In this document: positions 36,691 through 59,769 of the stretch, one piece after another
Position numbering within the stretch: position 1 is the stretch's first letter
How the letters are laid out: every line of letters starts with the position of its first letter
Source of the DNA: a virus
Lineage: Duplodnaviria > Caudoviricetes
DNA: 64,000 nucleotides
Reading direction: 5' to 3' (one strand)
Virus record (IMG/VR): IMGVR_UViG_3300017700_000723
Location: 466 to 64,465 of that record
Position numbers and translations under genes: made by a program
The notes under the pieces: model-generated
Databases searched by the model: none
The model's input: the letters and a program-made list of their open reading frames with translations, nothing else
What the model was told of the DNA's origin: nothing

Positions 36691-36956
36691 CGACGGTGAC
36701 CAAGACCGAGAGGGACGTGCTGCAGCTCCTGCACGAGAGCCGGGAGACCCTATATACGAAGTACAACATCGCCGTCACCCTCAACGTGACGCGCACGGTC
36801 GCGGCCCGAGCGGTCAGGTCCCTGGTCCGCCGCGGCTTCGCCGAGGTGCAGCCCGCGTTCAACGACGACGGCCAGCTCGTCGGCAGCGGCTACCACATCA
36901 CCACGCTCGGCGGGGAGCAGCCGTGGCTGACGTTCGAGATCGCGGAGGAGGCATGA
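36687..36956 (+). CDS. winged-HTH-like protein
   Basis: IAVTLNVTRTVAARAVRSLVRRGFAE HTH pattern. Confidence 0.6.
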   Translation: MTTVTKTERDVLQLLHESRETLYTKYNIAVTLNVTRTVAARAVRSLVRRGFAEVQPAFNDDGQLVGSGYHITTLGGEQPWLTFEIAEEA

Positions 36957-37423
36957 CGACGACGGCGCTGGACTACATCGAGAAGACGGCGGGCACAGTT
37001 AAGCTGACCGAGGTCAGCGGCGAGAGGTACGCCGACGAGGTCAACCGGCTGAACGGCCTGTTCCCGGACGACTTCGTGGCGCTCAAGCCGCGGCACCTCA
37101 AGGAGGGCTTCTGGTGGCTCGCGCACGACGGCCTGCAGCTCGTGGGCTTTGCGGGCATGGTGCCGTTCCACCCGTTCCCGCGCGTCGGCTACCTCAAGCG
37201 CGCGGCCGTCATCCCCGCGTATCGCGGCCGCGGCCTGCAGCAGCAGATGATGAATGAGAGGGTGTCGAGGGCCAAGTCGTCGACCGACTGGACACACTTT
37301 GTGACTGAGACACACATGGAGAACGTGGCGTCGTCGAACAACATGATACGGGCGGGCTTCCGCATGGTGACGCCCGAGCGTCCGTGGGCCGAGGAGACCC
37401 TGTTCTGGGTCAAGGAGATTTAG
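36953..37423 (+). CDS. GNAT-family acetyltransferase
   Basis: YLKRAAVIPAYRGRGLQ motif A; SSNNMIRAGF motif B. Confidence 0.85.
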   Translation: MTTTALDYIEKTAGTVKLTEVSGERYADEVNRLNGLFPDDFVALKPRHLKEGFWWLAHDGLQLVGFAGMVPFHPFPRVGYLKRAAVIPAYRGRGLQQQMMNERVSRAKSSTDWTHFVTETHMENVASSNNMIRAGFRMVTPERPWAEETLFWVKEI

Positions 37424-40586: not shown

Positions 40587-41960
40587 ATGGCCAAGCACGC
40601 TCGTCTCTCCGCCTCCGGCTCGAAGCAGTGGATCAACTGTCCCGGCAGCATTCGCCGCGAGGAGGACTACCCTGAGGGTACGTCGTCCATCTTCGCGCAG
40701 CAGGGGACTGGGGCTCACGCCCTGTCCGACTGGTGCCTCACGACCGGCAAGGACGCCGAGGACTACGTCGGCGGTCGCGTGTGGGTGCACGAGGAGAAGG
40801 AGACGAAGCTCGTCCCGCCCTCCGTCAAGGAGCAGGGCAAGCTCGAGGAGCGCCTCGCACGGGAGGGCTACACCCGCTTCGACGTCGTCGACGGCGAGGG
40901 CAACGGCGAGCTGACCGAGATCAAGTGCTGGGCCGTGATGATGTTCGTCAACTGCTGCCGCCAGGAGTGGCAGAAGTCGGCCGACATGTCCGCCGTGTTC
41001 GGCGAGGAGCCCCTGCCGTTCGAGACCGAGCGCTACATGGACGGCAGCTGGCTGCACCCGCTCATGGGCGGCACGGCCGACTGGCACATGCTCGCCATGG
41101 ACAACTGGATCAAGCTGAAGGACCTCAAGTATGGGGCGGGCGTGTCCGTCGAGGTCGAGGACAACACGCAGCAGATGATCTACGCCGTGCTGATCCTGCA
41201 CGAGCACCCCGAGGCCGACGGCGTGGACATGGAGATCGTCCAGCCGCGTCTCGCCCACAAGGACGGCCCGATCCGTCCGGCACGCTACACGAGGCAGCAG
41301 CTGCTCGACTTCCAGGCCGAGCTCGTCGACCTGGCCAACGAGACGCAGAAGCACAACGCGCCGATCAACGCGGGCGACTGGTGCCTCTGGTGCCGCGCCA
41401 AGGTCGGCTGCAAGGAGTTCCGGGAGAGGACGCAGGACCTGGCGCGCATGGACTTCGACGACCCGCCGGAGATCATACAGGCGCCGACCGACCTCGAGCA
41501 GCTGGCCAAGCTCGCCGCGTGGATGCCGATGCTCGACGCGCTGAACAAGGCCGTCGACGGTGCGATCGGCCGGGAGCTCCACCAGGGACGCCGGGTCGGC
41601 GGCTTCAAGCTCGTGCGCGGCAGGACCTACAGGCGCTACGGACACGCCGAGGACCACCCCGAAGGTCTCTGGTCGCAGGGTGATCCCATCGAGGAGGCCG
41701 AGATCGTCGGACTCCTGAAGGAGGAGGCGCTCCTGACCGAGGACATGATGTACCATCCGCCGCAGCCGGCCAAGCTGCTCACCCTGCCGCAGATGGAGAA
41801 GCTGGGCAAGGACGCCAAGGTGGTGCTGAAGAAGATCACGTACAAGCCGGAGGGGCCGCTGGTTGTAGCCCCAGAGAGCGACCCGCGCGAGGAGGTCAAG
41901 ATCGACCCGGCCGCGGCCTTCCCGAGCGACGATGACGACGCGATGGAGATACCAGGATGA
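40587..41960 (+). CDS. Cas4-like exonuclease, DUF2800 family
   Basis: HARLSASGSKQWINCPGS; GTAD...DLKYGAG; GDWCLWCRAKVGC. Confidence 0.9.
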   Translation: MAKHARLSASGSKQWINCPGSIRREEDYPEGTSSIFAQQGTGAHALSDWCLTTGKDAEDYVGGRVWVHEEKETKLVPPSVKEQGKLEERLAREGYTRFDVVDGEGNGELTEIKCWAVMMFVNCCRQEWQKSADMSAVFGEEPLPFETERYMDGSWLHPLMGGTADWHMLAMDNWIKLKDLKYGAGVSVEVEDNTQQMIYAVLILHEHPEADGVDMEIVQPRLAHKDGPIRPARYTRQQLLDFQAELVDLANETQKHNAPINAGDWCLWCRAKVGCKEFRERTQDLARMDFDDPPEIIQAPTDLEQLAKLAAWMPMLDALNKAVDGAIGRELHQGRRVGGFKLVRGRTYRRYGHAEDHPEGLWSQGDPIEEAEIVGLLKEEALLTEDMMYHPPQPAKLLTLPQMEKLGKDAKVVLKKITYKPEGPLVVAPESDPREEVKIDPAAAFPSDDDDAMEIPG

Positions 41961-42651: not shown

Positions 42652-43242
42652 GTGGCTGAACGTAAGGCAGTGTTTACCCCGCCGTTCCGGGTGTCGTTCC
42701 CGAACGTGTATCGCCCCTCGAGCTACCAGGGCGGCGAGCCGAAGTACTCCCTCGTCATGTTGTTCTACCCGGCCGACTTCAACGAGAAGCACAAGCTCGC
42801 TTGGAAGGACGTCGGCCGTATCGCCAACGAGGCGGCGATGGAGAAGTTCAAGAAGCCCCTCAAGGAGCTCCCGGACAACTTCCGCAAGCCCTTCCGCAAG
42901 GGCGAGGAGAAGGCGCACCTCGACGGCTACGGCCCCGGCTGCATCTTCTTCAGTGCGTCCTCCAAGCAGGCCCCTGGCGTGATCGACCGCAACAAGGCGG
43001 TCGTCCTCGAGCAGGACCTGTACCCAGGCTGCTGGGCCCGTGCGTCGATCAGCGCCTTCGCCTACGAGAACAAGGGCAAGGGCGTCGCGTTCGGCCTGCA
43101 CAACATCCAGAAGCTGGGCGAGGGCGAGAACTTCAGCGGGCGCCTCGCGGCCGAGGAGGACTTCGGCGACAACGTCGACGACGTCTTCCCGGATGCCGGT
43201 GGAGGCAGTGCGCCGATGGACGACGACGACCCGATGGCGTGA
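42652..43242 (+). CDS. single-stranded DNA-binding protein, DUF2815 (Enc34-like)
   Basis: RVSFPNVY..., YPGCWARAS, GVAFGLHNIQKLGEGE, acidic C-tail. Confidence 0.9.
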   Translation: MAERKAVFTPPFRVSFPNVYRPSSYQGGEPKYSLVMLFYPADFNEKHKLAWKDVGRIANEAAMEKFKKPLKELPDNFRKPFRKGEEKAHLDGYGPGCIFFSASSKQAPGVIDRNKAVVLEQDLYPGCWARASISAFAYENKGKGVAFGLHNIQKLGEGENFSGRLAAEEDFGDNVDDVFPDAGGGSAPMDDDDPMA

Positions 43243-44833: not shown

Positions 44834-44869
44834 ACGCTGGTATACGCTGCCCCTTTGGGCGGCGTATTC

Positions 44870-45265
44870 ACATCTCGCGACTGTTCGATGCTCGAACATA
44901 GCAGTTCAGGACCCGGGGGCAGTACCCGGCGCCTCCACCACGGATGCACGCTCGTCGGTGCTCATACGGCAGTTAGTTCGGCTGCTGTGCTAAGAGCAGG
45001 TCCTCCGACTGGACCCACTCGCCGACGGAGATGGCCCGAGCTAGCAGGGCACATTGGCGTGCATCCTTGATGGGGGCGAAACAGGATCGACTGGCTGTGA
45101 CAGGGAGAGAGTAGGTCGCCGGAGTGGCTCGCGTCATAGGGCCATGAACTAGATGCCAACGACAACACCCCGGCTCAGGACTTCCGCGTCGCGGCCTGAA
45201 TGAGCTAAGACGATGGGCTACTAGGGACCCTGCCTCGTGTCAGAATTGGGTCCCGCTCATTCCAA
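44870..45265 (+). ncRNA. ssrA: circularly permuted two-piece tmRNA (alphaproteobacterial type)
   Basis: T arm CCGGG-GGCAGTA-CCCGG and CGCCTCCACCA (ends 44940); IVS; GGGGGCGAAACAGGATCGAC at 45072 giving G3:U70; tag ANDNTPAQDFRVAA at 45155-45199; outer ends approximate. Confidence 0.92.
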
Positions 45266-45277
45266 CCGGAGGGCCGC

Positions 45278-45394
45278 ATGGCCGAGACCTGCATCCAACT
45301 CGCAATCGCGTTCACGATCGCCTGCGCTGGCGTTTCCATGGTGCTCTACACCCTGTCGCATCTCGTGGCCGCTGCCGTCAAGGTCACGTCCTGA
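45278..45394 (+). CDS. small membrane protein (38 aa)
   Basis: GGAGG RBS; single TM helix. Confidence 0.5.
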   Translation: MAETCIQLAIAFTIACAGVSMVLYTLSHLVAAAVKVTS

Positions 45395-46220: not shown

Positions 46221-46478
46221 ATGACGACGGCGGACACGGCCCCGAACGCGAACGTGAAGGCGGTCCTCAAGGCCTACATCGAGAGGATCGAGAGCGTCAA
46301 CGAGGATATCAAGACCCTCAATGACGAAAAGCGGGACATCTTCGCCGAGGCGAAGGGCAACGGCTTCGACGTCAAGGTGATGAAGCGCGTCATCCAGCTC
46401 CGCCGCCAGGACGCCAACGAGCGGGCCGAGAGCGACACGATCCTCGATACCTACCTGCGAGCATTGGACATGGTGTGA
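46221..46478 (+). CDS. gapR: GapR/DUF2312 nucleoid-associated protein homolog
   Basis: LKAYIERIE.....K....DI.AEAKGNGFDVKVMKRVIQLR.....ER.E....LD.Y..AL signature. Confidence 0.9.
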   Translation: MTTADTAPNANVKAVLKAYIERIESVNEDIKTLNDEKRDIFAEAKGNGFDVKVMKRVIQLRRQDANERAESDTILDTYLRALDMV

Positions 46479-48793
46479 CGTCCTCGGCCCAACGTACAGT
46501 CCTCCACGTCGACAAGGCCACGATCGACTTCGAGAGCCGCTCGCTGCGGGACATCGGGGTCGGCGCCTTCGTGTACTCCCGCTGCCCCACCACCCAGGTC
46601 TACTGCCTCGCCTACAAGATCAACGACGGCCCGACTAAGCTGTGGCACCGCGGCCACCCCAAGGTCGGCATCAAGCAGTCCCCGTTCCCGCAAGACCTCG
46701 CGGACCACATCCTGAAGGGCGGGCTCGTCGAGGCGCACAACGCCGGCTTCGAGTACAACATGTGGAACGCCTGCTTCCGCAGCGAGTTCCCGGAGTTCCC
46801 CATACTCGGCCTCGAGCAGCTGCGGTGCTCCGCCGCCAAGGCCGCTCAGTTCGCCCTGCCGCGCTCCCTCGAGGGAGCATGCGACGCCCTACGCACGCCG
46901 ATCCGCAAGAACATGGACGGCAAGAAGGTGATGCTCCGGGTCTCGAAGCTGCCGCCGAAGTACAAGGCCAAGGACATCGCCTCGCTCCTGGCGCAGGTCG
47001 AGCTCGGCACCCTGGACGTCAACGACATCCCGTGGAACGAGGACCCGAACGACCTCCGCACGACGTGGGCCTACTGCTGCGACGACGTCGACGCCGAGCA
47101 CAGCCTGTCCGGGTCTCTGCGCGAGATGCGCCCCCGCGAGCTCGAGATGTGGCAGATGGACCAGCGGATGAACCTCCGCGGCATCACCTGCGACGTCGCC
47201 GGGGCCAGGGTGGCGATCGACATGGCGACGGAGGAGGCTGACCGCCTGAACGGCCGGCTCAGGGAGATCACGGGCGGCGCGGTGCCGAAGGGCTCGTCCC
47301 GCATCAAGCTGAGGAGGTGGGCGAACGACAACGACTTCGCCATCCAGAACACGCAGGCGGACCACATCAAGGAGATGCTGGTCAACAACAAGGAGCGGCT
47401 GCTCTCGACCGAGACCGGGAAGCTGGTCTACGAGGCGATGGAGATATGCGTCGACGTCAACCAGACCTCGACGACGAAGTACGCCCAGATGCTCGACATG
47501 GTCTGGACCGACGACCGCATCCGCGACCTCATGATGTACTACGGCGCCGCCAGGACGGGGCGGTGGGCCGGCAAGGGCGTCCAGCCGCACAACTTCCTCC
47601 GCGGCTTCTCGAAGGACATGCAGTTCGCGTGGGACCAGATACTGAAGCAGGACCCGGTCCGGCTGCAGATACTGTTCGGCTCGACGATGAAGGCGCTGGC
47701 CAAGGCGACGCGCGGAGCGCTGATCGCCGCCCCCGGCAAGGACCTGATGGTGGCGGACTACGCTGCGATCGAGGCGCGCGTCCTGCCGTGGCTGGCGGAC
47801 GATCAGGACGCCCTGGACATCTTCCGGAGCGGTCAGGACGTCTACCTCAAGATGGCCGGCGACATCTACAGGAACGACCCGGAGCAGCAGGAGTTCATCT
47901 CCTACATCGACCGCCTGGCGCGGGACCCGACGAACAAGGCGCTCATCGAGGAGATCAAGACGAAGTGGCCGGTGCTCCGCCAGATGGGCAAGAAGGCGAT
48001 CCTGGGCCTCGGCTTCCAGATGGGCGCGGAGAAGTTCGACGACGAGTGCGCGGCGGAGGACCCGCCGATCAACATGCCGCGCTCCTTCTTCTACAAGGTG
48101 GTGAAGACATACCGCGAGGTCTCGTTCCCCAAGATCGCCAGCTTCTGGGACGACCTCAACGAGGCCGCCGTGTGGGCTATCCAGAACAAGGGCAAGAAGG
48201 TGCAGTGCCGGATGGTGGCCTACAAGTTCGTGGGCGAGTTCCTGCACTGCCAGCTGCCATCCGGCCGCCTGCTGTCCTACCACTTCCCGACCGTCTCCAT
48301 ATCGCGGAACGTGACCTGGTCGGCGACGTCCAAGCAGGGCAAGGAGGCGACGATCCGCGTCCGGGTCAAGCCGAACGAGCCCATGCCGTCGGTCTACGAG
48401 CGGGCGAAGATCAGCGCCAGGATGGCGGAGAAGACGATCGACAACCCGAGCGAGTACGAGATACAGGACAAGCCGTCGATCTTCTTCACGGGCGTCGACC
48501 AGAAGACGAAGCAGTACGTCCGCATGGTGACCTACGGCGGATCGCTGGCTGAGAACGTGACCCAGGCGACGGCCCGGGACCTCATGGGCGAGGCGATGCT
48601 GCGCTGCGACGCCTCGGGCCTGTACGAGATGCTCCTGTCGGTCCACGACGAACTCATCGCCGAGTGCGACGAAGACAAGGGCGACGTGCGGGAGTTCGAG
48701 CAGATGATGGCTGCGCTACCTGATTGGGTGTCGAACGACAATCTGGTCCCGGTCGCGGCCGAGGGCTGGCGGGGCAAGAGGTATCGCAAGTGA
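46475..48793 (+). CDS. polA: DNA polymerase, family A with 3'-5' exonuclease
   Basis: DFES exo I, AHNAGFE, RTGRW, motif A DYAAIEARVL, motif B RQMGKKAILGLGF, motif C VHDEL. Confidence 0.95.
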   Translation: MTSSAQRTVLHVDKATIDFESRSLRDIGVGAFVYSRCPTTQVYCLAYKINDGPTKLWHRGHPKVGIKQSPFPQDLADHILKGGLVEAHNAGFEYNMWNACFRSEFPEFPILGLEQLRCSAAKAAQFALPRSLEGACDALRTPIRKNMDGKKVMLRVSKLPPKYKAKDIASLLAQVELGTLDVNDIPWNEDPNDLRTTWAYCCDDVDAEHSLSGSLREMRPRELEMWQMDQRMNLRGITCDVAGARVAIDMATEEADRLNGRLREITGGAVPKGSSRIKLRRWANDNDFAIQNTQADHIKEMLVNNKERLLSTETGKLVYEAMEICVDVNQTSTTKYAQMLDMVWTDDRIRDLMMYYGAARTGRWAGKGVQPHNFLRGFSKDMQFAWDQILKQDPVRLQILFGSTMKALAKATRGALIAAPGKDLMVADYAAIEARVLPWLADDQDALDIFRSGQDVYLKMAGDIYRNDPEQQEFISYIDRLARDPTNKALIEEIKTKWPVLRQMGKKAILGLGFQMGAEKFDDECAAEDPPINMPRSFFYKVVKTYREVSFPKIASFWDDLNEAAVWAIQNKGKKVQCRMVAYKFVGEFLHCQLPSGRLLSYHFPTVSISRNVTWSATSKQGKEATIRVRVKPNEPMPSVYERAKISARMAEKTIDNPSEYEIQDKPSIFFTGVDQKTKQYVRMVTYGGSLAENVTQATARDLMGEAMLRCDASGLYEMLLSVHDELIAECDEDKGDVREFEQMMAALPDWVSNDNLVPVAAEGWRGKRYRK

Positions 48794-48960
48794 AGAAGCG
48801 CGAGGGCGACAACGCCAAGGCGAAGTGGGCCAGGAAGGCCCGTGACGCCTTCAAGCAGATCAGGGACCTCTGCGCCAGCTACTACAAGGAACCGAAGCCG
48901 AACACGCAGACGCTGATCCAGGATATCTGGCGCACGGCCAACTTCGCGGAGATCGACTGA
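48790..48960 (+). CDS. hypothetical protein (56 aa)
   Basis: GTGA overlap with polA stop; 3' part of track ORF 48724..48960. Confidence 0.5.
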   Translation: MKKREGDNAKAKWARKARDAFKQIRDLCASYYKEPKPNTQTLIQDIWRTANFAEID

Positions 48961-49430
48961 TGGTGAAGTTCCTCACCTACTACGGCGAGATGCTCCTCGC
49001 GCCCGTCCTGGGCCTCGTGCTCCTGACTGGCAACCTGTTCCCGTGGGACGAGGTGCCGGGGTTGGTGCTGGGCGGCATCGTGTCGTGGACGCTGGCCGAG
49101 TACGCCGTTCATCGTTGGGTCCTGCACGACCTCGCGCCGACGCAGCATCGTCTCCACCACGCCAGGCCGAACGACCCGATCGAGCACATCTTCTGGGGCA
49201 TCTGGCTCTGCTTCGCCGTCGTCTACCTACTCGCGGGAGGAGCGTTCACCTGCGGGGTCCTCCTGGCATATGCCTGGTACCTCTACGTCCACCACTGCGC
49301 CCACTTCCGTCCGGGCTGGCTGCCCTACTTACTGGTCAAGCATCACGAGGGGCACCACATCTACGCGACCCGCAACTTCGGGGTGAGCACGACCCTCTGG
49401 GACCATGTCTTCGGGAGCAAGCTGCGATGA
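48960..49430 (+). CDS. fatty acid hydroxylase/sterol desaturase family membrane enzyme
   Basis: EY.VHRWVLH, H..HH, H...H, HH..HH and NFGVSTTLWDHVFGS His boxes. Confidence 0.85.
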   Translation: MVKFLTYYGEMLLAPVLGLVLLTGNLFPWDEVPGLVLGGIVSWTLAEYAVHRWVLHDLAPTQHRLHHARPNDPIEHIFWGIWLCFAVVYLLAGGAFTCGVLLAYAWYLYVHHCAHFRPGWLPYLLVKHHEGHHIYATRNFGVSTTLWDHVFGSKLR

Positions 49431-53789: not shown

Positions 53790-53965
53790 CCCACGTCGCC
53801 AGGATGGACCACAACTACTTCGAGCAGCTGCGTCGTGCTGGAGAGATGCAGCAGAAGATGCACGAGCGCCTACTGGCACTCGGGTTCGTGTGGGACGGGA
53901 TGGACGGCTACTCGACCGACGACCCGGCCCTGTGGGAGCAGCACAAAAAGGAGATCGGGCTATGA
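53786..53965 (+). CDS. hypothetical protein (59 aa)
   Basis: read manually; GTGA and ATGA overlaps at both ends. Confidence 0.55.
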   Translation: MTHVARMDHNYFEQLRRAGEMQQKMHERLLALGFVWDGMDGYSTDDPALWEQHKKEIGL

Positions 53966-54348
53966 GCCAGCGAGGAAGGGAGGCGCGGGAGTATGTCGAG
54001 CGGTGCCTCGAGGAGTTCAAAGTCCCGCGGCCGTACGCGTTCGGCGTCACGGGCGGCTGCCACCAGGACGTCCGGTTCACCTACCTCGGCCGAGCCTGCC
54101 GGTACGTCTTCCCCGGCTCACCGAGCGACAGGCGCGCGCTCAAGAACTCGCGCACGGAGCTCAGGAAAGTCCTGCGCTCCACCGAGGGGAAAGCTCTTCC
54201 AGCAGGACCTCAGGGCGGACCCGTTCTGGATGCTGGTTGCGTGCTGCCTCGTCAACTTAACTACGTGGGAGGTAGCACGGGTCGCCTTCGCGAAGCTGAG
54301 GACGCGTTACGCCGATGCAAGTGGCCTCGCCACAGCAAGGCCGTCTAG
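53962..54348 (+). CDS. hypothetical protein (HicA-like N-terminal half)
   Basis: AAGGAG RBS; GCH..V.F......V.P.SPSD.RAL.N pattern; C-terminal third looks non-coding and overlaps glycosylase. Confidence 0.55.
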   Translation: MSQRGREAREYVERCLEEFKVPRPYAFGVTGGCHQDVRFTYLGRACRYVFPGSPSDRRALKNSRTELRKVLRSTEGKALPAGPQGGPVLDAGCVLPRQLNYVGGSTGRLREAEDALRRCKWPRHSKAV

Positions 54349-54736
54349 GCTCGTCCCGACGCTCAGGCCTCTCGGCCTCTCCAACATCAGGTCTGCTCGT
54401 TTGGTCGCGATGGCCAAGGCTTGGACCACGCAAGTCCCCCTCACTGCCTCGGACGTCCTAAGGCTACCTGGATGCGGCAAGTACGCGTCTGACAGCTGGG
54501 CGATCTTCATCGACGGCAGGACCGACGTGTACCCGACCGACGGCAAGTTGACGTGGTACATGGAGAGGGCTCATGCTCGAGAAGCAGCTGGCGATGGTGG
54601 AGCGGTTCCACCAGACGGTGACGGGTCTGCCGATACCGCAGTATCCTACGCGCCTGAGCCCGGAGCGCAAGGCGAAGGGCCTCGAGGCCCTGCGCGAGGA
54701 GGTAAACGAGTTCGAGGATGCCGCCAACGCGGCTGA
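54188..54736 (+). CDS. HhH-GPD DNA glycosylase, MBD4-like (5' end uncertain; first ATG 54230)
   Basis: DPFWMLVACCLVN, LRPLGL..IR, HhH LPGCGKYASDS, PTDGKL catalytic Asp as in MBD4 PEDHKL. Confidence 0.8.
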   Translation, partial: GKLFQQDLRADPFWMLVACCLVNLTTWEVARVAFAKLRTRYADASGLATARPSRLVPTLRPLGLSNIRSARLVAMAKAWTTQVPLTASDVLRLPGCGKYASDSWAIFIDGRTDVYPTDGKLTWYMERAHAREAAGDGGAVPPDGDGSADTAVSYAPEPGAQGEGPRGPARGGKRVRGCRQRG

Positions 54737-55589
54737 CGAGGCCGACGCCCTGGTGGACCTGATCTACTTCGCCTACGGACGCCTCCTCGAGATGGGCATA
54801 CGACCAGGTCCAGCCTTCCAGCTCGTGCACGACGCCAACATGAAGAAGGTCGGTGGGACCAACAAGCGCGGCAGCCTGTACGAGGCGGCCAAGCCCGATG
54901 AGTGGCGCGCTCCCGACTGGGACTGGCTCTTCATGACCGAGATCGAAGGCCGCGGGCAGTACGTCGGCCTGAAGCGCCGGGACACGACGCTCATCCAGCC
55001 AAAGCATAACCCCTACGACGGCGCCTCCCTGCCGAAGAGGAAGGTCCTCCTGCTCGGCTACGGACGGCACGGCAAGGACACCGTCGCCGAGATGCTCAGG
55101 GACCACTACGGGCTCTCCTTCACGTCGAGCAGTCTGTTCTGCGCCGAGAAGGTGATGATGCCGGCGTTCCTGCGCGCGCGTCAGGAGTGGCTCTCTACAC
55201 CGCTCGGCCCCGAGACGGGCAAGACCTCAATCCCAATGCTCTACGACAGCGTCGAGGCGTGCTTCAACGACCGGCACAACCATCGCAAGTTCTGGTTCGA
55301 TGAGATCGAGCGGTTCAACACGCCGGACAAGGCCTCGTTGGGCAAGGCTATCTTCGCCGAGCACGACATCTACTGTGGCCTGCGCAGCAAGCGGGAGTTC
55401 GCCGCCGTCAAGAACTCCGGGCTGTACGACGTCTGCATCTGGGTCGACCGATCTGACCACGTCCCGCCGGAGGACAAGTCGTCCTGCACGGTCGAGCCGT
55501 GGATGGCGGACTACGTCCTCGACAACAACGGGACACTTGAGGAGCTGCGGTTCAACCTGGACCAGCTCATGACCTCACTGGAGAAGTGA
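54573..55589 (+). CDS. fusion of MazG/DR2231-like NTP pyrophosphatase and deoxynucleoside monophosphate kinase
   Basis: EEVNEF...DALVDLIY...VHDANMKK N-terminal; P-loop GYGRHGKDTVA C-terminal. Confidence 0.85.
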   Translation: MLEKQLAMVERFHQTVTGLPIPQYPTRLSPERKAKGLEALREEVNEFEDAANAADEADALVDLIYFAYGRLLEMGIRPGPAFQLVHDANMKKVGGTNKRGSLYEAAKPDEWRAPDWDWLFMTEIEGRGQYVGLKRRDTTLIQPKHNPYDGASLPKRKVLLLGYGRHGKDTVAEMLRDHYGLSFTSSSLFCAEKVMMPAFLRARQEWLSTPLGPETGKTSIPMLYDSVEACFNDRHNHRKFWFDEIERFNTPDKASLGKAIFAEHDIYCGLRSKREFAAVKNSGLYDVCIWVDRSDHVPPEDKSSCTVEPWMADYVLDNNGTLEELRFNLDQLMTSLEK

Positions 55590-55590
55590 A

Positions 55591-56427
55591 TTGCAGAACT
55601 TCAACACAGCCTACCACGATCTGCTGGGCGACCTCGTCTCCAGTCCGTTCTCCGAGGTGAACGAGCGGACCGGCGTCGAGATCAAGATGATCCCTGGCGG
55701 CTACTCGTTCAAGATCGACCTGTCTGACCAGACGCTGCCTGTCACAGGCTCCCGCAAGTTGTTCCCGCATGTGGCCGCGGCGGAGATCGCGTGGTTCATC
55801 CGCGGGGACCAGGACACAGTGTTCCTCAACCAGCACGGCGTGAAGATTTGGGACAAGTTCGTCGAGGCGGACGGTAAGACGGTCGAGGCGGCGTACGGCT
55901 ATCGGTGGCGCTACGCCTTCGACCGTGACCAGCTCTGGTGTGCGATCGAGGCGTTGCGGAAGAACAGCACGGACCGCCGTATCTGGGTACAGGCCTGGGA
56001 CCCCCGCGTAGACGGCCTCGGCGCCGCCGGCCAGAAGAACGTGCCCTGTCCCGTCGGCTTCACCCTGTCGCTGGTCGACGGCCTCCTCCACAGCTCCCTG
56101 TTCATCCGCAGCTCGGACGTGTTCGTCGGCCTGCCGTACGACGTCATGGGCCACGCGATGCTCATGGCGGTCGTCGCTGCGTCGGTCGGAGCCATGGGCC
56201 TCGGCTCGATGCACGTCACGCTGGCCCACGCGCACCTATACAAGTCGCACTACGACATGGTGGACGCCGCCCTGTCGCAGACGATGTACCCGCAGGGGCC
56301 GAAGCTCTACGCCTGGACGCGGGACGACGTCCTCCGCGACCCGGACGGTTTCGTCTGGACGTACCGCAAGGCCGCGCAGGACGTCGCGTGGCCATCCTAC
56401 TCACCCAAGCCGGAGTTGATCCTTTGA
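55591..56427 (+). CDS. thymidylate synthase homolog, predicted dCMP methylase/hydroxymethylase
   Basis: TS fold motifs (EIAWFI.G, IWD, catalytic PC, RSSD, HLY) with Asp184 at the TS Asn177 position. Confidence 0.88.
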   Translation: MQNFNTAYHDLLGDLVSSPFSEVNERTGVEIKMIPGGYSFKIDLSDQTLPVTGSRKLFPHVAAAEIAWFIRGDQDTVFLNQHGVKIWDKFVEADGKTVEAAYGYRWRYAFDRDQLWCAIEALRKNSTDRRIWVQAWDPRVDGLGAAGQKNVPCPVGFTLSLVDGLLHSSLFIRSSDVFVGLPYDVMGHAMLMAVVAASVGAMGLGSMHVTLAHAHLYKSHYDMVDAALSQTMYPQGPKLYAWTRDDVLRDPDGFVWTYRKAAQDVAWPSYSPKPELIL

Positions 56428-56828
56428 AGCTTATGCCTGCACCCCCGCCCGAGAAGCCCGGCGATGACCCCGCCGTCCACCCGTTCGTCAACGCGTTCGC
56501 CAACATCGGCGCGATCATGGGCCGCGACCTCGGCGTCGTCGCCCTGCGGTCGATCGAGGCCCAGAGGGGCGGTACGAGCGCTGTCCTGTTCTGGTCCGCG
56601 GAGGACTGCCCCGAGGCGATCAAGGCGAAGGTCCCCGCCGAGATGACGGTCGGACTGTACGCCGTGATGATCGTGCCGCCCAAGGCGTCCGTCCCTGGCT
56701 TCCTGTTCACGGACGCCGACGTTCAGGCGGCGAAGGTCAACCTCGTCGACGGCTCCATCCTGGTGGCCTTCGTGCGGAAGTCGACCGAGGACAGCGAGCG
56801 CATCGCGGACCAGTTCAACGCAGGCTGA
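56424..56828 (+). CDS. hypothetical protein
   Basis: TTG start overlapping TS-homolog stop. Confidence 0.55.
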   Translation: MKLMPAPPPEKPGDDPAVHPFVNAFANIGAIMGRDLGVVALRSIEAQRGGTSAVLFWSAEDCPEAIKAKVPAEMTVGLYAVMIVPPKASVPGFLFTDADVQAAKVNLVDGSILVAFVRKSTEDSERIADQFNAG

Positions 56829-57076
56829 TGCCGCGCGTCCTCAACAAGTACCGCGACGTCATACCCCCGGGCGCAGTCTACTGCGGCCGGGGTTCACCTT
56901 ATGGCAACCCCTTCCCGATCGCAGGGAACATGACCAGGAAAAAGGCGATAGAGAGGTTCCGCTGCGAGGTTCTGCCGTCGCTAGACTGCGAGCCGTTGCG
57001 GGGAAAGGACCTAGTATGCTTCTGCAAGCCGAAGCCCTGCCACGTGGACCTGGTCCTGGAGAAGGCCAACCGCTAG
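56828..57076 (+). CDS. DUF4326 family protein
   Basis: YCGRGSPYGNPF...LRGKDLVCFCKPKPCH signature. Confidence 0.88.
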   Translation: MPRVLNKYRDVIPPGAVYCGRGSPYGNPFPIAGNMTRKKAIERFRCEVLPSLDCEPLRGKDLVCFCKPKPCHVDLVLEKANR

Positions 57077-57435
57077 ACCCCTGGGAGATGCACGCTTATG
57101 TCTTCACGTACCACGGCGATGACCCGCGTCCGTTCTTCGAAAGGACCTTCCCGGCCAGCTGCCTCGCCCAGGCCCAAGACTGGATCGGCCGCCAAAGGCA
57201 CCGAGGCTTCATCTGCGTCGACTGCCTCCCCCGCTTCTATTACCGCTAAGTTCAAGCCGAAGGACCGGGTCGAGACGACGCCCGCCTTCTCAGAGCTGTT
57301 CGACGGCGGTGCCCACTGGACCGGCACGGTCCTGAGCGCGAAGTCGTTCGACAAGTTCGTACAGTACATGGTGCAGACGGAGCAGGCTGGTCTCTGTCGC
57401 ATCGGCGAGAAGTGGCTCAAGAAGGAGACCAAGCG

Positions 57436-57936
57436 ATGAGACTGCTGATGGCGGTGAGCAAGGACGGCTACGTGGCCCGGCGGAAGGACGACGACATGTC
57501 CTGGACCGGGCCCTTCGACAAGGCGGTGTTTCGCCTGCTCAGCCACGTGGGCGGTGAGCTGGGGTGCGGATCGAGGACGTACGACCTGCTCCCACACAGG
57601 CTCAAGGGCCGCAACATCCACCGGCTCAGCCAGCAACCCGTGCCGCCGCAGGCCGCCACACCCGCCTCGCCACTCGTGCAGAACCTGTCCTGGTTCGCCG
57701 AAACGTACACGGGCGGCTGGCTCATCGGCGGTCTGCACATCGCGGTCAACGCCCTGCAGATGGACCTCGTCGACGAGGCGTTCATCTGCCAGTCCGACCG
57801 CAGCTGCTTCCCGGGCGACGACGGCGAGCTCTGCACCCTCGGGCTGCTCATCAACGACCGTGGGACGGACTGGGAGCGGACCGACGAGATAAAGGTCGGC
57901 GACACGACCGTCAACGTATGGAAGCGCCGACGATGA
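57436..57936 (+). CDS. dihydrofolate reductase-like protein
   Basis: LMAVSKDGYVA, MSWTGPFDKAVFR, GSRTY, LKGRN, WLIGG DHFR-like motifs. Confidence 0.75.
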   Translation: MRLLMAVSKDGYVARRKDDDMSWTGPFDKAVFRLLSHVGGELGCGSRTYDLLPHRLKGRNIHRLSQQPVPPQAATPASPLVQNLSWFAETYTGGWLIGGLHIAVNALQMDLVDEAFICQSDRSCFPGDDGELCTLGLLINDRGTDWERTDEIKVGDTTVNVWKRRR

Positions 57937-58133
57937 GCAAGATCGATCTGGAAGCCTGTGCGACCGTGTGGGACTTCGACGCCCACTTCACCGACGCCGA
58001 CATCCCGATGATAAAGCGGTGTCTCGAGGCGATGCCGCTCTTCGTCTCGCCGACAGTGGCCCGCTACGCCAAGCTCAAGGGCTTCGTCGAGGGCGTCCAC
58101 TTCCACGTGCAGAAGAGGATAGCGACATGTTGA
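57933..58133 (+). CDS. hypothetical protein
   Basis: ATGA overlap; 3' part of track ORF 57564..58133. Confidence 0.5.
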   Translation: MSKIDLEACATVWDFDAHFTDADIPMIKRCLEAMPLFVSPTVARYAKLKGFVEGVHFHVQKRIATC

Positions 58134-58603
58134 GGGGCGACAGCAAAGTCAGCGAGACGGACCTGTGGAACTGGCTCGCGAAGGCGAAGGACGAGCTCGA
58201 CAGGGACCTGCACATCCGCCGGATCGAGAACCTGGTCGGCGTGGGCGACCCCGACGTCCAGGGCTGCTACCTCGGCGGCTACTTCGACATAGAGCTCAAG
58301 ACCGCGGCTCGACCGGCCAGGCCGTCCACGCAGATACTGAACCCCAACGACGAGTACATCCGGCCGGAGCAGAAGGTCTGGCACCGCCTCCGGTGGCTGG
58401 CCGGCGGGAACAACTTCTTCCTGCTGCAGGTCGGGAGCGGAGCGGACGGCGCGATGATGTACCTGCTGCCCGGGACGCTGTGGAGGACCATCGAGGGCCG
58501 AACCGAGGAGGAGCTGCACAACTTCTCTGTGGTCGACCCGCGCCGCTCGCTGCCGTCTGAGATCATCCGGCGGGCGACGTCCTATCGTTCCACCCTCGGT
58601 TAG
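58127..58603 (+). CDS. PD-(D/E)xK Holliday junction resolvase/VRR-NUC-like nuclease
   Basis: RIEN.VGVGDPDV...DIELK...RPEQ.VW motifs. Confidence 0.8.
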   Translation: MLRGDSKVSETDLWNWLAKAKDELDRDLHIRRIENLVGVGDPDVQGCYLGGYFDIELKTAARPARPSTQILNPNDEYIRPEQKVWHRLRWLAGGNNFFLLQVGSGADGAMMYLLPGTLWRTIEGRTEEELHNFSVVDPRRSLPSEIIRRATSYRSTLG

Positions 58604-59183: not shown

Positions 59184-59449
59184 GCGACGAGAAGATAGTC
59201 GAGCTGAAGACCCGGCCGAAGCACGTGCAGGAGACTGTCGTCGCCAGGCTCGAGGACGCGCTCAAGATGGCGAAGGACGGCAGGCTGAAGTCGGTCGCCA
59301 TCGCCGCCGTCGGCAGCGACGACTCCGTGTGGACCTCCTGGTCCGAGACTGACAACTTCGCCATGATGCTGGGCGCGGTCTCCAGGCTGTCCTACAGGAT
59401 CAACGAGACCCAGGAAGTAACTCTGGTAAGAGAGGGCGACGAGCCGTGA
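59180..59449 (+). CDS. hypothetical protein
   Basis: ATGA overlap. Confidence 0.65.
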   Translation: MSDEKIVELKTRPKHVQETVVARLEDALKMAKDGRLKSVAIAAVGSDDSVWTSWSETDNFAMMLGAVSRLSYRINETQEVTLVREGDEP

Positions 59450-59769
59450 AGCAGATCAGGACGAGGATCGCGGGGTTCAACAACTACGACGGGGCGCCGC
59501 AGGCCCTCATGGGCATGCGCCCACAGACCAGGCTCGTGCTGAAGCCCGAACCCACGAACGCGTTCGACAAGAACGCCATCGAGATATTCACCACCTCCGG
59601 CCTGAAGCTGGGTTACATCCCGAGGGTGGACAACGAGCTGGTGCTGTCCAGGCTGAACGACAAGGGCGCGCGCGTTCAGTGCTTCAAGACGTCAGACACG
59701 TTCAACTCCATCGTGCTCCGGTACGACGTGCCCGAGATCGATGACGACAGAGGAGACCCCCTAGCATGA
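59446..59769 (+). CDS. HIRAN domain protein
   Basis: IAG, L.LKPEPTNAFDKNAI, KLGYIPR signature. Confidence 0.85.
   Translation: MKQIRTRIAGFNNYDGAPQALMGMRPQTRLVLKPEPTNAFDKNAIEIFTTSGLKLGYIPRVDNELVLSRLNDKGARVQCFKTSDTFNSIVLRYDVPEIDDDRGDPLA

Follow-up and report, generated by a model that had tools for sequence, protein, structure and literature searches.

A putative Xp12-type pathway for replacing cytosine with 5-methylcytosine, with an MBD4-like glycosylase, in an uncultured phage of a probable alphaproteobacterium

We analyzed a 64,000-nucleotide stretch of DNA (the window), which is nearly the whole of the complete 64,465 bp IMG/VR virus record IMGVR_UViG_3300017700_000723, an uncultured phage with direct terminal repeats. 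A block of genes in this window (positions 53962 to 57936) probably encodes a pathway that replaces cytosine with 5-methylcytosine (5mC) at the nucleotide level, as in the Xanthomonas phage Xp12. The pathway would consist of a thymidylate synthase (TS) homologue, a single protein fusing a nucleoside triphosphate (NTP) pyrophosphatase domain to a deoxynucleoside monophosphate (dNMP) kinase-like domain, a protein with a dihydrofolate reductase (DHFR) fold, and a DNA glycosylase resembling mammalian MBD4. Judged from its genes, the system is a further example of the Xp12 system, each component having a homologue in a published phage genome. All of the module genes lie on the + strand with a strong coding signal (GC content at third codon positions, GC3, of 0.88-0.97), and the genes named in an earlier prediction made from the DNA letters alone (hereafter the original prediction) proved to be real, co-oriented and located at about the positions given there.

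In the proposed pathway, the MazG-type pyrophosphatase domain would convert deoxycytidine triphosphate (dCTP) to the monophosphate (dCMP), emptying the canonical dCTP pool and at the same time feeding the methylase. The TS homologue, carrying an Asp where canonical enzymes have an Asn, would turn dCMP and methylene-tetrahydrofolate into 5-methyl-dCMP and dihydrofolate, and the DHFR-fold protein would bring the dihydrofolate back to tetrahydrofolate. The fused kinase would phosphorylate 5-methyl-dCMP, a host nucleoside diphosphate (NDP) kinase would complete 5-methyl-dCTP, and the phage polymerase PolA (46475-48793) would incorporate it. The MBD4-like glycosylase would then remove the T from T:G mispairs left by 5mC deamination, with other enzymes finishing base excision repair. 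We infer every substrate named here, and the extent to which cytosine would be replaced in virion DNA, from homology, which also supports the pathway as it had been laid out in the original prediction. The description of the system as self-contained did not survive, as a host NDP kinase, a host supply of thymidylate and the later base excision repair enzymes are still required.

The TS homologue (55591-56427) is the presumed dCMP C5-methyltransferase. It matches the Pfam family Thymidylat_synt (PF00303) with an E-value of 1e-44 (153 bits against a cut-off of 24.3), and the top matches in the PDB are canonical TS enzymes, with no dCMP hydroxymethylase among the top 60. Alignment with E. coli ThyA shows that E58, Y94, C146, R166, S167, D169, H207 and Y209 are all kept. 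The catalytic Cys153 is encoded at 56047-56049, and Asp184 (codon 56140-56142, motif LPYDV) occupies the position of E. coli Asn177 and is invariant in 15 members of the clade described below, bearing out the cytosine-specifying Asp of the original prediction. A swap at residue 177 switches TS from deoxyuridine monophosphate (dUMP) to dCMP (PMC8670742). The M6-like enzyme of phage WP2 retains Asn at this position.

The window enzyme, the sole TS homologue that the genome encodes, is 52% identical to that of Xp12. Members of the same clade (39-51% identity, E<1e-40) are encoded in 74 of 50,697 phage records, Xp12 and PaMx74 among them, and the matches sampled beyond the clade reach at most about 35% identity over partial lengths. 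In a tree that was only a quick one, T4 gp42 and ThyA fall outside the clade, gp42 on a very long branch; the M6-like enzyme of WP2 is also a long branch there and is unreliably placed. The Xp12 homologue gave 5-methyldeoxycytidine (5mdC) in a liquid chromatography-mass spectrometry assay in E. coli that included the T4 kinase gp1, and PaMx74, which carries a homologue, has been reported to be fully 5mC (bioRxiv 10.1101/2024.12.05.627091). By its sequence, the product of the window enzyme would likewise be 5-methyl-dCMP.

Immediately upstream of the TS gene, a 338-amino acid protein (54573-55589) is predicted to combine the steps on either side of the methylation. Its N-terminal part (54573-54932, residues 1 to about 120) is an all-alpha NTP pyrophosphatase domain of the MazG/PRA-PH type and the presumed dCTPase. 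This part matches the Pfam PRA-PH/MazG family (PF01503) with an E-value of 2.8e-12 (47.3 bits against a cut-off of 21.3), its acidic metal-binding residues E42, E43, E46, D58 and D62 are invariant across eight homologues, and its model has a fold like that of the MazG-like protein DR2231. Beyond a linker region, residues 94-144, that is poorly modelled, the C-terminal part (55035-55589, residues about 155-338) is a P-loop domain resembling dNMP kinases and the presumed 5-methyl-dCMP kinase. Its P-loop, GYGRHGKDT, is also invariant across eight homologues, and the domain matches the PHROG family phrog_139, annotated as 'deoxynucleoside monophosphate kinase' (E 8.6e-15).

We used fold searches for the kinase domain and for the DHFR-like protein because sequence searches of the PDB returned nothing significant for either. 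With Foldseek, the kinase domain matched P-loop nucleoside monophosphate kinase folds, among which the T4 dNMP kinase gp1 (1DEK) ranked second with a template modelling (TM) score of only 0.26-0.36. Along its entire length the fusion shares 50% identity with gp15 (annotated as 'Cof hydrolase') of the Roseobacter phage RDJL Phi 2, and it matches PHROG 38514 from end to end; its pyrophosphatase domain shares 39% identity with the N-terminal domain of Xp12 QNN97215. In the published E. coli assay, 5mdC entered DNA only when the T4 gp1 kinase was provided, so a kinase step is required (bioRxiv 10.1101/2024.12.05.627091).

The DHFR-fold protein (57436-57936) is presumed to regenerate tetrahydrofolate. 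Its AlphaFold model has a predicted local distance difference test score of 81, and the top PDB folds are all DHFRs (TM-score about 0.7, E 1e-9), which also stand at the head of 400 PDB structure matches at E<=0.001. The equivalents of W22, L54, R57, G95 and G96 are invariant in an alignment that includes E. coli FolA and T4 Frd, and the Asp of the motif FDKAVF aligns with E. coli Asp27. The protein is 37% identical to the Xp12 DHFR and matches phrog_13578 (E 5.5e-39). Homologues in phages AXL1 and DLP4 have been reported to be functional DHFRs that raise trimethoprim resistance (PMC9206674), and together with the fold and the signature residues they uphold the DHFR-like enzyme of the original prediction.

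The MBD4-like glycosylase, of the HhH-GPD type, has a conserved domain at 54179-54584 within an open reading frame (ORF) that spans 53993-54736. A phmmer search of the PDB returned 15 MBD4 entries (E 3.5e-10 to 5e-08) that span residues 1-128 of 140, and of the solved structures the catalytic domain of mammalian MBD4/MED1 (PDB 6VJW, 3IHO, 4DK9, 1NGN) matches best across the whole domain, at an identity of only about 30%. Taking the residue roles, and the MBD4 numbering as fixed by the helix-hairpin-helix hairpin at 534-541, from a published study (PMC3479182), we found equivalents of Gln449, Leu506, Tyr540, the catalytic Asp560 and Lys562, all invariant in six phage homologues; the aligned motifs are PTDGK for Asp560 and Lys562, the Q of LFQQ for Gln449 and the Y of GKYA for Tyr540. 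There is no N-terminal methyl-CpG-binding domain: the phage protein consists of the catalytic domain alone, and its homologues are 118-187 amino acids long. Mammalian MBD4 and the phage enzyme would have their rationale in common, namely the T:G mispairs that arise when 5mC is deaminated.

The glycosylase is 53% identical to Xp12 QNN97216 and 70% identical to the homologue in contig L008, the nearest relative of the window phage. In a large collection of proteins the family comprises at least 174 sequence clusters, most of them from phage-sized contigs (about 60 kb). We also considered gp16 of RDJL Phi 2 as a possible homologue and found no similarity. On one contig the 6 kb to either side of the glycosylase homologue (L007:6001-6402, 57% identical) contain no gene for a TS, a pyrophosphatase or a DHFR, and this homologue may be an exception to the association; in L008 an extra 183-amino acid ORF with HNH-like motifs, recognized by eye, lies between the glycosylase and pyrophosphatase genes (L008:3310-3861).

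The 5' end of the glycosylase gene is unusual. The original prediction had the gene begin at 54188; the MBD4-like domain is real, but this position marks only where homology starts and is not a start codon. The frame contains no ATG, GTG or TTG between 53993 and 54230, and the only in-frame start 5' of the domain is the ATG at 53993. The ORF from there begins inside a small conserved ORF in another frame (53962-54348, + strand) and ends at 54736, 160 nt inside the pyrophosphatase gene. The conserved part of the small ORF is about 76 amino acids long (53962-54189), with its first stop at 54348; it aligns with 76-amino acid ORFs located 5' of the glycosylase in Xp12, Donnerlittchen and L008, and the GC3 coding signal of its frame reaches about 54150. 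Good Shine-Dalgarno sequences precede both ATG 53962, which has AAGGAG 8 nt before it, and ATG 53993. The same overlapping layout occurs in L008 (L008:2717-3479), whereas Xp12, Donnerlittchen and other contigs have ordinary, separate genes for the small ORF and the glycosylase, the latter with its own start codon. A programmed -1 frameshift at this junction is not supported, for the heptamer GGGAAAG of the window is in the wrong frame for a slip into the glycosylase frame and L008 lacks that heptamer, only a GGGG run being common to the two. The gene may be translated through a long out-of-frame overlap or as a +1 fusion to the upstream ORF, or it may be in early decay.

Evidence on the role of the glycosylase comes from substitution spectra in relatives with and without it. 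The gene is present in phages Xp12 and AXL1 and nowhere in the genomes of Bosa and DLP4, where the locus itself shows a clean absence (10 of the 483 bases can be aligned). One host strain served for the isolation of both DLP4 and AXL1. The GC content of Xp12 (68.2%) and AXL1 (67.3%) compares with 64.8% in Bosa and 65.1% in DLP4, a difference of 2.2-3.3 points. We polarized substitutions by parsimony over 61,177 common alignment columns. The ratio of C-to-T to T-to-C changes was 1.9 on the AXL1 branch (0.9 after correction for base composition), as against 8.0 on the stem of Bosa and DLP4 and, on their separate branches, 19.5 (Bosa) and 33.6 (DLP4), giving a pooled odds ratio of 5.9 for Bosa and DLP4 relative to AXL1 (Fisher p 2e-41). 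The ratio of GC-to-AT to AT-to-GC transversions, which served as a control, hardly differed (2.7 versus 1.9, p 0.05). A stricter alignment filter raised the effect: the ratio became 57-73 for the branches of Bosa and DLP4 and 12.7 for the stem they share, as against 2.2 for AXL1.

A second, independent absence was found in contig L049, which is 97% identical to Donnerlittchen and has about 70 bp in place of the glycosylase. These two form the one sufficiently close pair with and without the gene among the IMG/VR loci, and their differences, which are unpolarized, point more weakly in the same direction (90 versus 56 transitions, p 0.006). In both of these independent cases, absence of the glycosylase coincides with an excess of C-to-T changes. 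The pattern supports a repair role, and we think it probable that the enzyme repairs phage DNA.

The gene order of the block recurs in Xp12, RDJL Phi 2, Donnerlittchen and dozens of IMG/VR contigs, which argues that the module is not a chance arrangement. At the DNA level, a search with the block found matches in Xp12-like phages only. By protein similarity, the TS clade extends to Xp12-like phages and to phages of Pseudomonas, Achromobacter, Roseobacter, Rhodobacter and Ruegeria, its alphaproteobacterial members being RDJL Phi 1/2/3/6, the Rhodobacter phages RcRudolph and RcSimone-Hastad, and the Ruegeria phage Tedan. The glycosylase occurs in 13 of the 74 TS-clade records, all of them Xp12-like phages of gamma- or betaproteobacteria, and beyond the clade the search of the 50,697 phage records returned only weak matches, in an archaeal virus.

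We also checked co-occurrence at 50 TS-clade loci from IMG/VR, each flanked by 2.5 kb or more of sequence in both directions. A pyrophosphatase is encoded at 46 of the 50 loci, 22 of these with a kinase domain and 20 with a C-terminal domain of the Xp12 type; a deaminase is encoded at 45, a DHFR at 42 and the nuclease that follows the DHFR gene at 43. The glycosylase is found at 17 loci, nine with the kinase-type architecture and eight with the Xp12 type. Since nine loci have both the glycosylase and the kinase-type fusion, the combination in the window is recurrent rather than unique.

Among known systems, the closest is that of Xp12 (with its relatives AXL1, DLP4, Bosa and PaMx74; Bradleyvirinae). 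There a small ORF, an MBD4-like glycosylase, a MazG pyrophosphatase, a TS homologue with Asp177, a DHFR and a RecU/Hjc-like nuclease are encoded in the same order as in the window, and the genome size class and the replication module (PolA, helicase, HIRAN) are alike as well. The Xp12 annotation calls the glycosylase a 'hypothetical' protein and the pyrophosphatase (QNN97215) a 'HAD hydrolase'. The two phages differ in the C-terminal domain of the pyrophosphatase, which in the Xp12 type is all-alpha and lacks a P-loop (phrog_18404; L001:8226-8546), whereas that of the window is a kinase-like domain; in Xp12-type phages some other protein must therefore carry out the kinase step. They also differ between the TS and DHFR genes, where Xp12 has a dCMP-family deaminase and the window a 131-amino acid gene and a DUF4326 gene, and in host, Xanthomonas for Xp12 and probably an alphaproteobacterium for the window phage. 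The DNA of AXL1, like that of Xp12, resists restriction enzymes with G/C in their sites; the genetic mechanism was called unknown, and the AXL1 protein gp65, described as 'ENDO3c', was said to occur only in Xp12 and to lack canonical active-site motifs (PMC9206674). In our comparison gp65 is the AXL1 homologue of the MBD4-like glycosylase.

The RDJL Phi 1/2 phages (Xiamenvirus) have the full-length fusion, a TS homologue that is 45% identical and carries Asp177, a DHFR, the downstream nuclease and a related capsid gene, but they differ from the window phage in having a deaminase and in lacking the MBD4-like glycosylase. T4 follows a parallel scheme, in which dCTP is destroyed (gp56), dCMP is modified by a TS-family enzyme with the Asp (gp42), and a phage dNMP kinase (gp1) and the Frd DHFR are present; the P-loop of the window's kinase-like domain resembles the gp1-like loop GxxRxGKDT. 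In T4, however, gp42 is a distant hydroxymethylase, glucose is added, and the pathway enzymes are separate proteins. The T4 dCTPase also belongs to a different fold family, and the stretches of T4 that we examined carry no annotated MBD4-type glycosylase. Cyanophage S-2L, with its Z-genome (MazZ, PurZ, DatZ), uses a MazG-type pyrophosphatase that supplies the monophosphate while the canonical deoxynucleoside triphosphate (dNTP) is removed. S-2L is an analogy only, as its modified base is the purine 2-aminoadenine and its core enzymes are unrelated to those of the cytosine module.

Several observations weigh against the pathway proposed here, and we consider them together with the explanations that they could favor. 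On the enzymatic side, the substrates of the pyrophosphatase and kinase domains (dCTP and 5-methyl-dCMP) are presumed only, the fold match of the kinase is generic, with 1DEK standing among other P-loop kinases at low TM-scores, and the DHFR-fold protein scores 16.3 bits against Pfam DHFR_1, under the curated cut-off of 25. The Asp at position 177 is common to T4 gp42 and so cannot tell a methylase from a hydroxymethylase. Were the TS homologue a dCMP hydroxymethylase like gp42, the DNA would contain undecorated 5-hydroxymethylcytosine, there being no glycosyltransferase in sight; two of seven deaminase-linked TS homologues gave no 5mdC in the published assay (bioRxiv 10.1101/2024.12.05.627091), and MBD4-type enzymes also excise 5-hydroxymethyluracil, the deamination product of 5-hydroxymethylcytosine (PMC3479182). 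We nevertheless consider a hydroxymethylase very unlikely. The window enzyme shares half of its residues with the proven Xp12 methylase, its closest structures are canonical TS enzymes, and it keeps a TS-like C-terminal tail that is missing in gp42, which is itself only 24% identical to E. coli ThyA in a joint alignment. A hydroxymethylase also releases tetrahydrofolate and would have no need for the DHFR partner that accompanies most of the sampled TS homologues. It is scarcely more credible that the module serves mainly for nucleotide supply, with 5-methyl-dCMP as an intermediate toward deoxythymidine monophosphate or with dCMP and dUMP both methylated, and with virion DNA substituted partly or not at all. 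Some Xp12 thymine does derive from deaminated 5-methyldeoxycytidine nucleotides, and the window phage has no other thymidylate synthase. However, a search of the whole genome found no dCMP-family deaminase, ThyX, second TS, Tet/JBP or C5 DNA methylase, and the lack of the deaminase counts against a thymidylate route via 5-methyl-dCMP. It also leaves 5-methyl-dCMP with no visible fate except DNA, and thymidylate must therefore be supplied by the host. The fused pyrophosphatase and dNMP kinase bracket the methylase reaction, as expected if its product is destined for the dNTP pool, and a T:G glycosylase is sensible only with 5mC in the DNA, its absence in relatives leaving a C-to-T signature across the genome. 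Hypermodification is not supported, since Tet/JBP and C5 DNA methylase genes are absent genome-wide and no glycosyltransferase appeared among about 40 ORFs scanned with Pfam, the latter as stated in the original prediction.

The remaining points concern the glycosylase, which might not act on the phage's own DNA at all, being either a decaying gene or an enzyme aimed at the DNA of the host or of a competitor. Its Pfam HhH-GPD score of 19.8 bits is under the cut-off of 26.2, and the Arg468 finger of MBD4, which fills the gap left by the flipped base, is replaced in the phage proteins by an invariant Leu (VNLTTW). The gene has no ordinary start codon and overlaps both neighbors out of frame, so it may be poorly expressed or decaying in the window phage; 33 of the 50 related loci do without it, and the homologue on L007 lies apart from any TS module. 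The C-to-T evidence, moreover, rests on two loss events in relatives whose homologues are 53-55% identical, not on the window phage, and a 295-amino acid protein (AXL1_58) and two tiny ORFs (AXL1_22/23) are likewise missing from Bosa and DLP4. We judge a decaying or outward-directed glycosylase unlikely all the same, because the domain is under clear coding constraint by GC3 and is well conserved in L008 in the same layout, because neither the catalytic residues (Asp and Lys) nor those of the base pocket (Gln and Tyr) vary, and because the C-to-T drift to be expected of unrepaired 5mC deamination is seen in lineages that lack the gene. Returning to the Xp12-type pathway, the stand-alone MBD4-type family may be a phage-borne maintenance arm of cytosine-replacement systems, countering their load of 5mC deamination, so that its loss would lead to GC-to-AT drift; in the sub-lineage without a deaminase it may perhaps be expressed unusually, by an out-of-frame overlap or a +1 shift. 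For this wider proposal we find the case evenly balanced.

The remaining genes of the locus separate the TS and DHFR genes or follow them. The original prediction was right about the common orientation of its four genes, but the TS and DHFR genes are not adjacent: a 131-amino acid gene, a DUF4326 gene and one or two small ORFs lie between them. The 131-amino acid gene (56433-56828, + strand, GC3 0.9-1.0) has no assigned family, with no Pfam or PHROG match and no informative neighbor in the ESM Atlas, and a homologue was found in L008 only. The gene after it (56828-57076, + strand) encodes an 82-amino acid DUF4326 protein (PF14216, E 8.7e-17) that is 79% identical to its counterpart in L008; the family has been proposed to be rhodanese-phosphatase-like and to act on ribose-linked terminal phosphates (PMC9503650). 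These two genes sit where relatives have a dCMP-family deaminase of the 5mC-selective type, a replacement seen only in the window phage and L008 (L008:5856-6429). The one or two small ORFs that follow (57088-57439, + strand) have uncertain limits, as the frame plot changes frame near 57190; they gave no family matches and are absent from L008. Downstream of the DHFR gene, and outside the pathway, lies a candidate RecU/Hjc-type nuclease gene (58124-58603, + strand), kept 3' of the DHFR gene at the 43 IMG/VR loci counted above. Searches of Pfam and of PDB sequences gave no match for its product, which is probably a nuclease of this type on the strength of an ESM Atlas lead only, the nearest named clusters being RecU/Hjc Holliday junction resolvases (score 0.94).

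The host of the window phage is likely an alphaproteobacterium. The phage, whose window has a GC content of about 65%, encodes a circularly permuted transfer-messenger RNA (tmRNA) of the alphaproteobacterial type at 44845-45290, detected by ARAGORN and by Rfam RF01849 and RF04321 above their gathering scores, with the tag peptide ANDNTPAQDFRVAA. Its tail genes are of the phiJL001/BR0599 type, and the nearest DNA-level matches to its capsid gene are those of Roseobacter phage RDJL3 and phage PhiJL001. The tmRNA type, the tail genes and the affinity of the capsid gene together make such a host likely. Elsewhere in the genome, the early region encodes a GNAT acetyltransferase (36923-37423), a DUF2800/PD-(D/E)XK nuclease (40587-41960), an Enc34-type single-stranded DNA-binding protein (42652-43242) and a HIRAN-domain protein (59446-59769). 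Between the PolA and helicase genes, a 156-amino acid ORF (48960-49430) matches Pfam FA_hydroxylase (E 5.9e-14), which is unusual within a phage replication module.

The novelty implied in the original prediction did not hold, since the module is Xp12's own, the T:G glycosylase is found in Xp12 and AXL1, the fusion in RDJL Phi 2 as gp15, and the TS clade in alphaproteobacterial phages. Published descriptions that we could search cover only the association of TS, deaminase and PRA-PH genes (bioRxiv 10.1101/2024.12.05.627091), and we found no paper in the searchable literature that reads the module of RDJL-type phages as a 5mC pathway. The MBD4-type reading of the glycosylase, the kinase fusion, the lineage without a deaminase and the occurrence of the module in alphaproteobacterial phages appear to be undescribed in searchable papers; they are refinements and not a new kind of system.

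The pyrophosphatase-kinase fusion could stand in for the T4 gp1 helper of current assays, and the module may offer tools in the form of a 5mC nucleotide supply and of T:G glycosylases active on densely methylated DNA. The window would extend the Xp12 strategy, in which 5-methyl-dCTP is made and finished DNA is not methylated, to a phage of a probable alphaproteobacterium, and the same module has gone unrecognized in published genomes of Roseobacter, Rhodobacter and Ruegeria phages. DNA in which 5mC replaces cytosine would withstand many restriction enzymes, and the results of methylation-aware sequencing would be distorted by it. In such phages, the coincidence of glycosylase absence with C-to-T drift would be rare evolutionary evidence of a phage repairing damage specific to its own modified base.

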